Source: Escherichia phage vB_EcoM_EP57. Taken from it: a DNA stretch of 64,000 bases. The stretch lies in sequence record OR544956; one strand, written 5' to 3'. Below, one piece after another: positions 6,177 through 62,908 of this stretch (position 1 is its first letter; the number at the start of each line of letters is the position of its first letter). The position numbers and the translations under genes were made by a program. The notes under the pieces were generated by a model. It searched no databases. It was given only the letters and a program-made list of their open reading frames with translations, and had not been told where the DNA came from.

Positions 6177-6421
6177 TCGACGAGCTTGCCTCTCAAGTCA
6201 TAGAAAATTATTGGCGCGAGAGAGAAGCTTTCATTATGCGCAGTCTCAAAGAGTATTTCATTGGGACTGTGCGAATGGAAGATATTGTAAGTAGAGTAGA
6301 GATTCATGTATGGCCCGATTATGAAGAATGGGTTGACAAAGAAAATGAAAATGCTATAATTCTTCGTATATACAAACCGGAGATAACATTAGGAGGAAGA
6401 AGTGTTAAACTTCGAAATTGA
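6173..6421 (+). CDS. Hypothetical protein
   Basis: ORF overlapping the upstream stop (ATGA). Confidence 0.35.
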   Translation: MIDELASQVIENYWREREAFIMRSLKEYFIGTVRMEDIVSRVEIHVWPDYEEWVDKENENAIILRIYKPEITLGGRSVKLRN

Positions 6422-13561: not shown

Positions 13562-13812
13562 CAGAGGACGATGCAATGGGTAGTAGTTTCTTGGCTAAAG
13601 GTGCTGGTATTACCTTGGCTTTGGAACGAGATAAAGCCGCTGAAGACCCTGTAGAACGCAATACGACTCATTGCTTTATCCTAAAAAACCGTGAGTTCTC
13701 GGAAACTGGTCCGGCAGGGCAGTTTTACTATGACATTAGAACTGCAACTCTGCATGACAAAGAGCAGTATTTCAACAATCCTGCTAATTTGCCTACGGAT
13801 AGCAACTATTAA
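13477..13812 (+). CDS. C-terminal segment of the primase/helicase in the -1 frame
   Basis: HVKKSANGGNEHLTEDDAMGSSFLAKGAGITLALERDKAAED resembles the T7 gp4 helicase C-terminal motifs (LICHLKNPDKG...[23 protein letters not shown]). Confidence 0.55.
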   Translation: MVEAHHERVCYNHYPHVKKSANGGNEHLTEDDAMGSSFLAKGAGITLALERDKAAEDPVERNTTHCFILKNREFSETGPAGQFYYDIRTATLHDKEQYFNNPANLPTDSNY

Positions 13813-13831
13813 GGGCTTCGGCCCTTTTATT
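13811..13831 (+). terminator. Intrinsic terminator (GGGC-UUCG-GCCC then UUUU)
   Basis: aagggcttcggcccttttatt immediately after the helicase stop. Confidence 0.5.
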
Positions 13832-13842
13832 AAAAATACCTG

Positions 13843-13871
13843 TTGACAACTTTACGGAAGAGATTTATACT
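13843..13871 (+). promoter_or_regulatory. Strong sigma70-type promoter (TTGACA-17-TATACT)
   Basis: Consensus -35 at 13843-13848, 17-nt spacer, TATACT at 13866-13871; gaggagaag then ATG at 13905. Confidence 0.6.
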
Positions 13872-56700: not shown

Positions 56701-56915
56701 CTTAACTCGCTGCGCTCGTTAATAGATTTCTAGGGTAACATACTTCGAACACAAAAGTCAAGAGTTTTATTAAAAATTATTTTCTGTGTGCAAAAACCTT
56801 GCTTAAACAGGTAGCAATAGTATTAAGAGGCTGTAGAGCAAGTTTACTTACTAGGTAAGGTGATTTATCATCTTATATATAAAAAGTGCGTCAGAGACGC
56901 GTTTAGGAGGCTAGA

Positions 56916-59551: not shown

Positions 59552-59607
59552 TGTTGTAAGCCGCCCTTTATGGGCGGTAATGTGAGATGTATTAAATAGG
59601 AGGAAAC

Positions 59608-60486
59608 ATGTTTGTAAAATCTTTTAAATCCGCTCTGCCTATGGTTGTTGGTGACAATGCTTCTGTAGCATCCCTTAACAGCATTACAGATATTCCTCTG
59701 GAATTTGTAACAGCAGAAGGCTCCCAGTCACACACTATTGGTCTTGTTCGTTTTGAAGATGACTCTAAATTTGTAAAAGAGTTCTCAGATCTTGAACTGC
59801 TTAATGTAGGTCAATCTGTGAAGAAGGTAGATAAAAAGAAAGTTAAACGTATTCTGAATGAACGTCTAGAAGAAATGCGTCAGGACATGGAGAGCGAAGG
59901 TAAAGAGTTTTATGTCGATAAAGAAGTAGTCAAAGCAATGAAGGAAGATATTGAATTTGCACTATTGCCTGAAACAGAACCTGAAGATTTCTTTAACTAT
60001 GTTGTCTTGGATAAAACTACGAATCTTCTTTATGTTCTTAATGGAAGTAAAAAGGTTGCAGAAGAGATTACTTCTTTCCTCCGTTCCGTTCTGGGGACTT
60101 TCCCTTCGGTAGGTTTTAGTGTGCATGAAGAAGCTATTGTAAAAGGTTTTGGTGAATTGCTGGAGAATCACGAAGCAGATCGTATTACTCTCGGAAATTA
60201 TATCAAAATGGAGGATAGCGAGGGCGTTGTTGTTTGGAGTAAAGAATCCCTATACGAGTCTAAAGCTGTCGAACTAAAAGAAGATGGTAAAGATGTTGTT
60301 GCAATCGGTCTTGAATATGACGGTGTTGTAGATTTTGTAGTGGATAAAGAGTTTAAACTTTCTAAACTACGTTTTCCGAAATATTTTGCAGACGAAGAAG
60401 GTAGTATTGAAGCTTCAGTCCTTCTGTGCTTCAATGAGATTCGAGGTCTGATGGAAGATTTAACCAAAGCAACAATCCTTAAATAA
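59608..60486 (+). CDS. RdgC-like recombination-associated protein
   Basis: About 290 aa; pattern resembling E. coli RdgC in the C-terminal half. Confidence 0.4.
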   Translation: MFVKSFKSALPMVVGDNASVASLNSITDIPLEFVTAEGSQSHTIGLVRFEDDSKFVKEFSDLELLNVGQSVKKVDKKKVKRILNERLEEMRQDMESEGKEFYVDKEVVKAMKEDIEFALLPETEPEDFFNYVVLDKTTNLLYVLNGSKKVAEEITSFLRSVLGTFPSVGFSVHEEAIVKGFGELLENHEADRITLGNYIKMEDSEGVVVWSKESLYESKAVELKEDGKDVVAIGLEYDGVVDFVVDKEFKLSKLRFPKYFADEEGSIEASVLLCFNEIRGLMEDLTKATILK

Positions 60487-60490
60487 GTTC

Positions 60491-60519
60491 TTGACTTGCG
60501 GGATTAGTTATGATATTAT
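60491..60519 (+). promoter_or_regulatory. Sigma70-type promoter (TTGACT-17-TATTAT)
   Basis: Near-consensus boxes, then aggagg and the ATG at 60559. Confidence 0.5.
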
Positions 60520-60548
60520 GCCTACCTACTTAATGAGGTAGGCTTTTT
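60520..60548 (+). terminator. Intrinsic terminator overlapping the promoter-proximal region (GCCTACCT ... AGGTAGGC then TTTTT)
   Basis: 8-bp stem followed by a T-run. Confidence 0.45.
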
Positions 60549-60558
60549 AGGAGGCGTT

Positions 60559-60768
60559 ATGAAAAAGATTCTGACAGTCGTTCTTTTAGCTTTTAGTTTC
60601 ACAGTAGCAGCAGGTCAAATTACTTTAATCTTGTCTGATTCTGAAGTTAATGGCAATACAAAATATTGCTACTATTCTAACGCTAACCAAGATGAAGTTA
60701 TAGCAATCCCGAAAAGTCGTCAATGTCCGTATACTAAAACATTCTCAACAGAGGATGACGATGAATAA
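60559..60768 (+). CDS. Small secreted protein (signal peptide, two Cys, acidic tail)
   Basis: MKKILTVVLLAFSFTVAAGQ signal peptide. Confidence 0.45.
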   Translation: MKKILTVVLLAFSFTVAAGQITLILSDSEVNGNTKYCYYSNANQDEVIAIPKSRQCPYTKTFSTEDDDE

Positions 60769-61209
60769 TTAGGGGGAAATATTAGCGGTTATATTTTAAT
60801 TAAGCCTGAAGATCTTCATTTATATGTCAACGAAGAAACAATAGCTGCAATTGATTATGATCAGATCGCTTTCCAAGCAGCGTCTGCATTAGAGAAAAGA
60901 ACAATCATTGCAAAGCACATCCCTTCAGGTGCTCAAAAGGAATTTAAAAATAAGACAGAGTTTTGGGGTAAAAGCAAGACTAAGATTGGAGGTTGGCTAG
61001 GAGATACAAATGCAGAAAGAGCCTCCAAAAACAAACGTCCCTTCACAAAGGAAGAGTTCGAAATCATTGATAAGCAATACCCGCCAGAAGATATCGGACA
61101 CACCTTCCAAGCAGCTAAAACAAAAGTCTTAGGTATTCTAAAACATCTACGTTTAGAAAAATATTGCGGAGTTATTGGCGTAGGAAAAACTTTCAGACAC
61201 GCCTTCAAA

Positions 61210-61899
61210 ATGCCTGTAGAATATAAATCTGAACGATTAGATATCAAACCACTTCAGCTTTCAGAAACCAAAGATTATCTTGTGGAGTTCCACAATGGTG
61301 ATGTTGTTACTGTAATAGAAGCTGATGATGAGTTAGAGAAGTATGGTTTCCAAGGTTATAAAGATTATAAAAGGACGGGTAAATTTTCTTATATCGTTGT
61401 ATCTATAGATAAAGATAGTTTACATACTCCTAGTATCCTTTTTAATTTCTACAAAGAGGATGGAGTATTTAAAAATCCAGATATAATTCTTATTGACGAG
61501 TCTATTGGCGATATATGGATCGTAGATAAAGGTAAAAAGAAAGAAGTTAAAGGTTGGGGCAGTTACTGGTTAGCATATCAGATGCTAATGGGAGATAAAA
61601 CAGATAGTATCCGACCTTATCAAGATTTTGATATTAAGTTCGGAGATATTACTTGTTTTAATCTTCTTTCAGCTTGTAAAACTCAAGCAGAACTTTTCCA
61701 AACAGTTAAAGACACTTACTACTCATGGTTCCCAGAGGGTGTTAATTTTACTTCTTGGGATGGAGAAGAAGTCCATATGACAACAGATGAATGGATAGAA
61801 ACAATTTTCCAGTTGGTATACATGAAACGCTGGGATAATGACGATACAACATTTGAGAGTATGCTTCAGTCATACATCTCGCAACAGGAGGCAGAGTGA
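61210..61899 (+). CDS. Hypothetical protein; the reading frame is open from 60769 with no canonical start before 61210
   Basis: Same frame as 60559..60768, separated only by the TAA at 60766-60768. Confidence 0.35.
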   Translation: MPVEYKSERLDIKPLQLSETKDYLVEFHNGDVVTVIEADDELEKYGFQGYKDYKRTGKFSYIVVSIDKDSLHTPSILFNFYKEDGVFKNPDIILIDESIGDIWIVDKGKKKEVKGWGSYWLAYQMLMGDKTDSIRPYQDFDIKFGDITCFNLLSACKTQAELFQTVKDTYYSWFPEGVNFTSWDGEEVHMTTDEWIETIFQLVYMKRWDNDDTTFESMLQSYISQQEAE

Positions 61900-62849
61900 G
61901 CAGATTAACAGAAGAGCAGAAAGCAGATATCCTTAGTATGAGTGCAGAGGGTATGTCTTCTCGTAATATTGCAGCAATTGTTTTAGGTAGTCCAACAAGA
62001 AAAAGCACAGTGAACGATTTCCTTGCACGATTAAGTAAACAAGAGCCAGTTAAAAAGAAACAACCCGTTATTAAAATTATTGATGTTGAAACTGCACCAG
62101 AGATTGCATATACTTTCCGTCGATTCAAAGCCTTCATTTCTCCAGATCAAGTAATTCGTAGGGGTTATTTGTTATCTTACTCTTCTGCTGACCTATATAC
62201 TGGTGAAGTGGAAGGTAAGAACTTGTCTTCTTATCCTCTTTTTGATATTGATCATACAGATGATTGGGAGCTTTGCCAAGATCTTTGGAACCTTCTGAAC
62301 GAGGCAGATGTAGTTGTGGCACACAACGGGTATAAGTTTGACCGTGCATACATTAACCAACGATTTGCATATCACGATATGGCTCCTCCTTCTAATTATG
62401 TAGTTGTTGATACATTGAAGGCAGCTAAGAAACAATTTGCACTTCCTTCCAACTCCCTTAAAGAAATGGGAGCATATTTCGAAACAGAAAGTGAAAAACT
62501 GGATAACGAGGGGTTCCCTTTATGGAAAGCATGTTGTGAAGGTGATCGTGATGCTTTTGAACGTATGCAGATTTACAATGATGGTGATGTTGTTTCACTC
62601 CGTGATTTGTATATGAAAATCCTTCCGTGGATTCCACAGCATCCTAACTTATCCGCTTATTACCCAGATGAGAAAGTCCGTTGTTCTCGTTGTGGCAGTG
62701 ATCACGTTCACGTTGTTACTGGTAAGCAATACCACACTGCGGTAAGTTCTTTCGATATCATTCGTTGTGAATCTTGCGGCGGTTTGTCACGTAGTAGAGC
62801 AAACACCAGATCCAAGGATAAACGAGCAGCAACTATCATTGGAATCTAA
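61896..62849 (+). CDS. DnaQ-like 3'-5' exonuclease (DEDD family) with N-terminal HTH and C-terminal zinc-finger
   Basis: Exo I IIDVETAP, Exo II VVVAHNGYKFDRAYI, Exo III YNDGDVVSLRDLY; C-terminal CSRCG ... CESCGG. Confidence 0.55.
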   Translation: MSRLTEEQKADILSMSAEGMSSRNIAAIVLGSPTRKSTVNDFLARLSKQEPVKKKQPVIKIIDVETAPEIAYTFRRFKAFISPDQVIRRGYLLSYSSADLYTGEVEGKNLSSYPLFDIDHTDDWELCQDLWNLLNEADVVVAHNGYKFDRAYINQRFAYHDMAPPSNYVVVDTLKAAKKQFALPSNSLKEMGAYFETESEKLDNEGFPLWKACCEGDRDAFERMQIYNDGDVVSLRDLYMKILPWIPQHPNLSAYYPDEKVRCSRCGSDHVHVVTGKQYHTAVSSFDIIRCESCGGLSRSRANTRSKDKRAATIIGI

Positions 62850-62855
62850 TAATCA

Positions 62856-62878
62856 GGGAGCTTATTGCTCCCTTTTTT
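62856..62878 (+). terminator. Intrinsic terminator (GGGAGC-UUAUU-GCUCCC then UUUUUU)
   Basis: Hairpin plus T6 right after the exonuclease stop. Confidence 0.55.
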
Positions 62879-62879
62879 A

Positions 62880-62908
62880 TTGACAAAAATTTTATATTAG
62901 TGTATACT
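62880..62908 (+). promoter_or_regulatory. Strong sigma70-type promoter (TTGACA-17-TATACT)
   Basis: Same boxes as the promoter at 13843; followed by aaggagg and the ATG at 62936. Confidence 0.6.

Follow-up and report, generated by a model that had tools for sequence, protein, structure and literature searches.

An rdgC-like gene of Escherichia phage vB_EcoM_EP57 is followed by a short gap in which a promoter-like sequence runs directly into a terminator-like hairpin. This arrangement raises the question of whether both signals are real and, if so, how RNA made from the promoter could pass a terminator placed immediately in front of it. We addressed the question in a window of 64,000 nucleotides from this phage (sequence record OR544956); all positions refer to this whole stretch of DNA. 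The window comes from a phAPEC8-like Phapecoctavirus (subfamily Stephanstirmvirinae), the region examined having 99.0–99.8% identity to nearly all of the 64 matched genomes of this type. Records named as Campylobacter, Acinetobacter, Klebsiella, and Dompiswa phages were at least 99% identical to the window over 60000–61300, and the record 'Pseudomonas phage PsgM04F' grouped with the phiWec179-like phages at approximately 76%; the host labels of matching records look unreliable.

Layout of the junction downstream of rdgC

The upstream gene encodes an RdgC-like, recombination-associated protein of 292 amino acids (59608–60486; Pfam RdgC, E = 7.5e-22) and is labelled an RdgC-like exonuclease in related records. 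The gap of 72 nt between this gene and the next open reading frame contains both the promoter and the hairpin, all of these features lying on the plus strand. The −35 hexamer TTGACT (60491–60496), which matches TTGACA at five of six positions, is located 4 nt past the rdgC stop codon. A spacer of 17 nt separates it from the hexamer TATTAT (60514–60519), which is preceded by TG (60511–60512) to give the extended −10 element TG-A-TATTAT (60511–60519). The promoter scores 10/12. An alternative −10 hexamer, TATGAT at 60509–60514 (5/6), was rejected; the −35 hexamer lies 12 nt from it and none is found at 16–18 nt.

The hairpin, GCCTACCT-ACTTAATG-AGGTAGGC (60520–60543), was identified as a putative terminator by folding, by comparison, and by record annotation. 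It starts with 0 nt between the −10 hexamer and the stem, and 33 nt after the rdgC stop codon. Its 5′ arm (60520–60527), which also occupies the position of the promoter discriminator, its loop (60528–60535), and its 3′ arm (60536–60543) form a stem of 8 bp, 5 of them G-C, and a loop of 8 nt, with a folding energy of −12.7 to −13.9 kcal/mol. A T5 tract follows (60544–60548), the length of which differs among relatives, and then the Shine-Dalgarno sequence AGGAGG (60549–60554), a counterpart of which is present in all related loci. The open reading frame served by this site (60559–60768, with its ATG at 60559) encodes 69 amino acids with a signal-peptide-like N-terminus; it matches phrog_4641 (E = 7e-27) and is a homologue of phi92 gp086, which carries a SignalP annotation in the phi92 record. 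The first-pass annotation of this DNA had reported TTGACT-17-TATTAT at 60491–60519, followed by an 8-bp hairpin with T5 and the ribosome-binding site of a small secreted protein, and the sequence letters agree with it on each of these elements.

Conservation of the promoter elements

We compared the junction across 19 related loci comprising 17 distinct sequences, with RdgC protein identities to the window ranging from 84% down to 44%. The phage genomes compared were phiWec179, phi92, Klebsiella FKP3, and Citrobacter Tr1, at 76–67% DNA identity. Additional loci came from a viral-contig search, which gave 4 loci (4 IMG/VR contigs), and from one added metagenome scan (10 contigs, with the junction present in 9 of the 10). 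In the most distant lineage the RdgC protein identity is 44–47%. The same order of elements was found at all 19 loci: the stop codon, 3–4 nt, TTGAC(T/A), 17–18 nt ending in TGn, TAnnAT, 0 nt, the hairpin, a T-rich tail, a Shine-Dalgarno sequence, and the ATG of the signal-peptide open reading frame.

Conservation within the promoter was unevenly distributed. Among the 17 distinct sequences, entropy was 0 at positions 1–5 of the −35 hexamer, at the TG, and at positions 1, 2, 5, and 6 of the −10 hexamer; position 6 of the −35 hexamer was T or A, and positions 3 and 4 of the −10 hexamer had entropies of 1.5 and 1.0. The spacer had an entropy of 1.0, compared to 1.13 at the third codon positions of the adjacent rdgC 3′ end, and its length is 17 nt in the window and phiWec179 and 18 nt in every other lineage. 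The loci thus combine a near-consensus −35 hexamer, a spacer of 17 ± 1 nt, and a −10 hexamer with T1, A2, and T6 preceded by TGn, as expected of a sigma-70 promoter. Since selection is confined to the bases that sigma-70 contacts and does not extend to those between them, these data indicate a real promoter. We conclude that 60491–60519 is a conserved sigma-70 extended −10 promoter, with an activity predicted from this pattern, and that the conservation, not the single 10/12 match, is the real evidence for it. No promoter is annotated at the site in the ASO2A record, which lists only nine promoters genome-wide.

Compensatory changes in the hairpin and variation of the T-tract

Four types of stem occur among the lineages. 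Their pairs were counted by script from the base of the stem, as the shorter hairpin of the 44% lineage was not aligned correctly by MAFFT. The arms GCCTACCT/AGGTAGGC are shared by the window, phiWec179, and Tr1. The phi92-like loci have the same arms with pair 4 as T.G. The FKP3-like loci have GCCCTCCT/AGGTGGGC, in which pair 4 is C-G and pair 5 is T.T, so that these stems contain a U.U mismatch in the RNA. The 44% lineage has GCCCTTC/GAAGGGC with a 7-nt loop. Pair 4 therefore occurs as T-A, T.G, or C-G, pair 5 as A-T, T.T, or T-A, and pair 6 as C-G or T-A. Relative to the window, the 44% lineage carries double compensatory changes at pairs 4, 5, and 6 and pairing is still perfect; the one-sided intermediates T.G (phi92-like) and T.T (FKP3-like) are found in lineages between the two. 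Although stem and loop lengths shift from 8+8 to 7+7, all variants fold at approximately −11 to −15 kcal/mol, and the 0-nt register between the −10 hexamer and the hairpin is unchanged in 19 of 19 loci.

We also considered whether the palindrome could be an operator. The half-sites and their spacing differ between lineages (8-N8-8 versus 7-N7-7), a difference that co-evolution of a regulator could also allow. Because arm sequence and stem and loop lengths vary while pairing is kept, an RNA helix fits the data better than an operator of fixed spacing. A search of 60300–60900 against Rfam at a permissive threshold gave chance-level matches only, the best scoring 20 bits against a gathering score of 46 bits.

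Several features point to an intrinsic terminator in the window: a GC-rich stem after a stop codon, a T5 tract, and compensatory pairing. The ASO2A record carries a terminator annotation for the hairpin (TransTermHP, WebGeSTer), and the Schickermooser record has a 'terminator' feature beneath the match. The loop of 8 nt is as large as intrinsic terminators allow, and counts against this assignment. Conservation of the T-tract is much poorer than that of the stem, which persists in all lineages. It is T5 in the window; T4 in phiWec179, the phi92-like loci, and loci L010 and L011; T3 in loci L012, L014, and L015; ATTA in FKP3 and loci L013 and L016; TTCATT in Tr1; and T5AT2 in the 44% lineage. 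This erosion of the T-tract while the stem stays suggests that termination may not be the only or universal role of the hairpin. In the lineages with an eroded T-tract, termination may be weak or lost, or the stem may be kept for another role.

Predicted position of the transcription start

Because the −10 hexamer abuts the stem, there is no room for a start site upstream of the hairpin. RNA polymerase favors a purine start after a pyrimidine, 6–9 nt from the −10 hexamer. Every lineage has T and A as bases 8 and 9 past the −10 hexamer; in the FKP3-like and L007-like lineages, only pyrimidines occupy bases 2–8 and A9 is the first purine. Based on the invariant T8-A9, the pyrimidine run, and a parallel with rrnB P1 described below, we place the start at A60528 on the plus strand, the ninth base past the −10 hexamer and the first base of the loop. 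Transcription thus probably starts just past the 5′ arm, most likely at A60528 and within the range of approximately 60526–60528.

The predicted structure of the RNA varied with the start assumed. RNA from 60528 has no structure (0.0 kcal/mol), RNA from 60526 forms a hairpin of −4.5 kcal/mol, and RNA from 60524 forms an alternative 7-bp hairpin of −7.6 kcal/mol followed by C and U5. The logic by which promoter RNA would escape termination holds for the likely starts but hinges on the exact start position. A role for the hairpin in stabilizing the 5′ untranslated region was not supported, the 5′ arm lying upstream of every plausible start.

Proposed function of the junction and alternative explanations

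We consider it probable, on the comparative evidence, that the junction is an overlapping host sigma-70 promoter and intrinsic terminator from which promoter RNA escapes termination. According to this model, a polymerase arriving from upstream (ligase, rdgC) would transcribe both arms, form the hairpin, and terminate in the T-tract. A polymerase initiating at approximately 60526–60528 would make RNA that lacks the 5′ arm, form no hairpin, and read through the T-tract. The 8 bases past the −10 hexamer would then double as the discriminator of one signal and the 5′ arm of the other. The 33 nt from the stop codon to the stem, occupied by the promoter, may also keep the terminating ribosome off the hairpin. 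Polymerases from upstream would pass over the promoter before they stop and might thereby occlude it to some extent, although this is speculative. The first-pass annotation had proposed that upstream read-through terminates here while the promoter transcript starts inside the hairpin arm. The abutting −10 hexamer and the predicted absence of the 5′ arm from promoter RNA gain support from the selection on the promoter, the compensatory pairs, and the fixed register; the terminator half of that proposal is weakened by the poor conservation of the U-tract.

A potential concern is that only the terminator is functional, the hexamers being fortuitous matches within AT-rich intergenic DNA and read-through accounting for expression of the small open reading frame. 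Promoter-like matches are indeed common: over 55–64 kb we found 39, compared to 28.5 ± 4.6 in shuffles, an enrichment of approximately 1.4-fold that is so weak that hexamers alone prove nothing, and the whole window holds 51 promoter-like sites scoring at least 10/12, many of them within genes. The ASO2A annotators also marked just a terminator here. Terminator-like sites, on the other hand, were clearly enriched (18 versus 5.1 ± 2.6 in shuffles), and the nested layout was found in 0 of 150 dinucleotide shuffles, against a single occurrence in the window. This shuffle test chiefly mirrors the scarcity of hairpins with T-tracts in shuffled DNA, and so we added a conditional estimate derived from the 51 promoter-like sites and the approximately 24 hairpin-plus-T sites of the window. 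By this estimate, approximately 0.04 promoters scoring at least 10/12 would be expected to end 0–3 nt before a terminator stem, or approximately 0.008 if the TG is included. Such low expectations, the invariance of the −35 hexamer, the TG, and the key −10 positions in 17 distinct sequences that include the 44% lineage, and a spacer that evolves at a neutral rate and shifts in length from 17 to 18 nt make a chance match very improbable. Nearly as improbable is a promoter-proximal attenuator, in which the promoter's own RNA would retain enough of the stem to terminate, giving regulated or low downstream expression. Starts at 60524–60526 would leave the −7.6 or −4.5 kcal/mol hairpins 1–2 nt before U5, as an attenuator would need. 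However, the stem begins immediately after the −10 hexamer, which leaves the promoter unable to transcribe the hairpin in full; the first purine of the FKP3-like and L007-like lineages, A9, is beyond the arm; and we found no evident antiterminator structure, no Rfam family, and no leader upstream of the hairpin.

The alternative with the most to be said for it, which we still regard as unlikely, accepts the promoter but holds that the stem-loop is mainly something other than a terminator: a stabilizer of the 3′ end of rdgC mRNA or a site for its processing, a signal for pausing, or a DNA palindrome at the start site that a regulator recognizes, with T5 being secondary. The stem is kept far better than the T-tract (T3, ATTA, or TTCATT in several lineages), the phage sets many T-less GC-rich hairpins beside promoters, and a nearby T-less hairpin at 59561–59579 is likewise annotated as a terminator. 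Against this stand the canonical U-tracts at both ends of the comparison, T5 in the window lineage and T5AT2 in the most distant one, and the change of arm sequence and of stem and loop length with pairing kept, unlike an operator of fixed spacing. In addition, RNA made from the promoter cannot contain the complete hairpin, whereas hairpins of 5′ untranslated regions sit 10 nt further from the −10 hexamer. We view as more doubtful still an extension of the overlapping promoter and terminator in which the fixed 0-nt register is itself selected: one pyrimidine-rich segment of 8 bases, used both as an rrnB P1-like discriminator and as the 5′ arm, would yield a host-sensitive promoter with its start 9 nt downstream, and upstream transcription would occlude the promoter. 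If such a dual-use cassette is real, expression of the downstream nuclease unit would respond inversely to upstream transcription and positively to the growth state of the host, and if the cassette is general it would represent a distinct, recognizable class of phage transcription-unit boundary.

The overlapping promoter and terminator thus remains our preferred reading. What we describe is a compact, conserved junction built from what appear to be standard promoter and terminator parts; its promoter activity, start site, and termination efficiency are predictions from sequence.

The predicted downstream transcription unit

Promoter RNA would consist of a 31-nt unstructured leader followed by three genes, in a unit of approximately 2.3 kb that ends at the terminator at 62855. 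The order of the predicted unit is the small open reading frame, an exonuclease gene with a probable ATT start (60781–61899, plus strand; identified by its open frame, a Shine-Dalgarno sequence, and a phrog_107 match), and a gene for an RNase H-superfamily exonuclease (61896–62849, plus strand; Pfam RNase_H_2, E = 8.9e-10). The next boundary is a classical tandem on the plus strand, with a hairpin and T6 (hairpin 62855–62873) followed by TTGACA-17-TATACT (62880–62908).

The start of the exonuclease gene deserves comment. Its frame is open from 60769 to 61899 and contains no ATG, GTG, or TTG before codon 147; database records annotate 61210–61899 only, or give internal TTG or GTG starts. The 143 N-terminal residues that precede the annotated ATG at 61210 are conserved at the protein level, and phrog_107 matches residues 10–367. 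In all lineages an AGGAGG-like Shine-Dalgarno sequence lies 3–5 nt before ATT or ATC (ATT 60781–60783 in the window). Loci L010 and L016 have an in-frame TAA directly before the ATC, and the 44% lineage has an in-frame TAG three codons upstream. Based on the conserved Shine-Dalgarno sequence, the flanking stop codons, the N-terminal conservation, and the phrog_107 match, the exonuclease appears to use a conserved AUU/AUC start, and the GenBank entries appear to be shortened or mis-started. In the window the small open reading frame and the exonuclease share one frame, parted only by the TAA at 60766–60768. Because the frames differ in relatives, this arrangement is unlikely to serve a read-through fusion.

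Other promoter and hairpin arrangements in the phage

Three other sites had been listed by the first-pass annotation as similar tandems: 13811–13871, 62856–62908, and 38203–38137 on the minus strand. Promoter and terminator are present at all three, but in the reverse order, with the terminator first and the promoter following the hairpin and T-tract by 6–17 nt; on the minus strand the tandem runs from 38197 to 38137. All are tandems of the classical kind, for which the logic of a start inside the arm does not hold. No second convincing nested case emerged when the window and 50 kb of the ASO2A genome were scanned. One candidate in ASO2A outside the window (L020; 32432–32371, minus strand), AAGACA-17-TGaTATACT with a UUCG-loop hairpin, was rejected: its '−35' is coding, its 'TG' belongs to a TGA stop codon, and neither phiWec190 nor Eryne conserves the promoter, Eryne having a different TTGACT upstream.

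A recurrent module was apparent in these genomes, consisting of a sigma-70 promoter, 8–12 nt, a T-less GC-rich hairpin, a purine-rich ribosome-binding site, and a start codon. It is found in the window at 56843–56903 (plus strand) and 49978–49910 (minus strand), and in ASO2A at 528, 1278, 1758, 2160, 3495, 4352, and 4702 (plus strand) and 45379 (minus strand). Several of the module hairpins are annotated as rho-independent terminators in ASO2A though they lack a U-tract, and these annotations are probably wrong. A further hairpin of the window, GCCGCCC-TTTAT-GGGCGGT (59561–59579, plus strand), lies between the upstream open reading frame and rdgC, is followed by AATGTGAG and no T-tract, and is annotated as a terminator in ASO2A; it falls inside the spacer of a weak promoter-like sequence, TTGTAA-18-TAATGT. 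phi92 lacks an intergenic gap here. Elsewhere in the window we noted a perfect 12/12 consensus promoter with TG, TTGACA-16-TGnTATAAT (6333–6360, plus strand), and a palindromic hairpin, AGCCTCC-TTCG-GGAGGCT (693–710), which is terminator-like on both strands and may be a bidirectional terminator.

Significance and relationship to known systems

The junction adds an unannotated candidate promoter to more than 60 near-identical Phapecoctavirus genomes, at a site where ASO2A marks a terminator only, and defines a probable transcription unit for a small secreted protein and two nucleases. It provides a comparatively validated example of phage stop and start signals that appear to be packed into shared bases, and could serve synthetic biology as a natural insulator part of approximately 60 nt; the general understanding of promoters and terminators is unchanged by it. 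Our literature search found neither a transcriptome for Stephanstirmvirinae nor any account of transcription starting within a terminator hairpin, and the promoter-first geometry is not described in a Mycoplasma gallisepticum paper or in a Pseudomonas phage ONT-cappable-seq paper. A preprint, 'Widespread coupling of promoters and terminators of transcription in bacteria' (bioRxiv 10.64898/2026.08.19.745784), states that the initiation and termination sites of neighboring units are extensively coupled.

Three known arrangements invite comparison with the junction. mRNAs of the ompA type carry stabilizing hairpins at their 5′ termini, and these mRNAs, like the phage's own modules, resemble the junction in that a GC-rich hairpin separates a sigma-70 promoter from the ribosome-binding site of the following gene. 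In the phage modules, however, the hairpin is 8–12 nt past the −10 hexamer, at the 5′ end of the transcript, and without a T-tract, whereas the hairpin studied here is at 0 nt and has T5. The rrnB P1 promoter offers a parallel for the start site. Winkelman and colleagues are said to have described in 2016 (PNAS) its arrangement TATAAT-GCGCCACC-A, in which a long C-rich discriminator of 8 nt places the start 9 nt past the −10 hexamer. Promoters of this type have an unstable open complex and are sensitive to ppGpp and initiating NTPs. The junction similarly has an 8-nt discriminator of G plus pyrimidines (GCCTACCT, GCCCTCCT, or GCCCTTCT) and then the invariant T-A; it differs from rrnB P1 in having an extended −10 element and a near-consensus −35 hexamer.

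A third comparison is with the classical terminator-then-promoter tandem, which likewise places an intrinsic terminator and a sigma-70 promoter in one short gap to insulate and restart a downstream unit. At the junction the order is reversed and some bases belong to both signals, the 5′ arm coinciding with the discriminator. Upstream polymerases would here traverse the promoter first, and restart needs a start site within or after the arm. Both parts are ordinary members of their classes, and it is the geometry of their overlap, with the promoter first and the hairpin arm as its discriminator, that is unusual.
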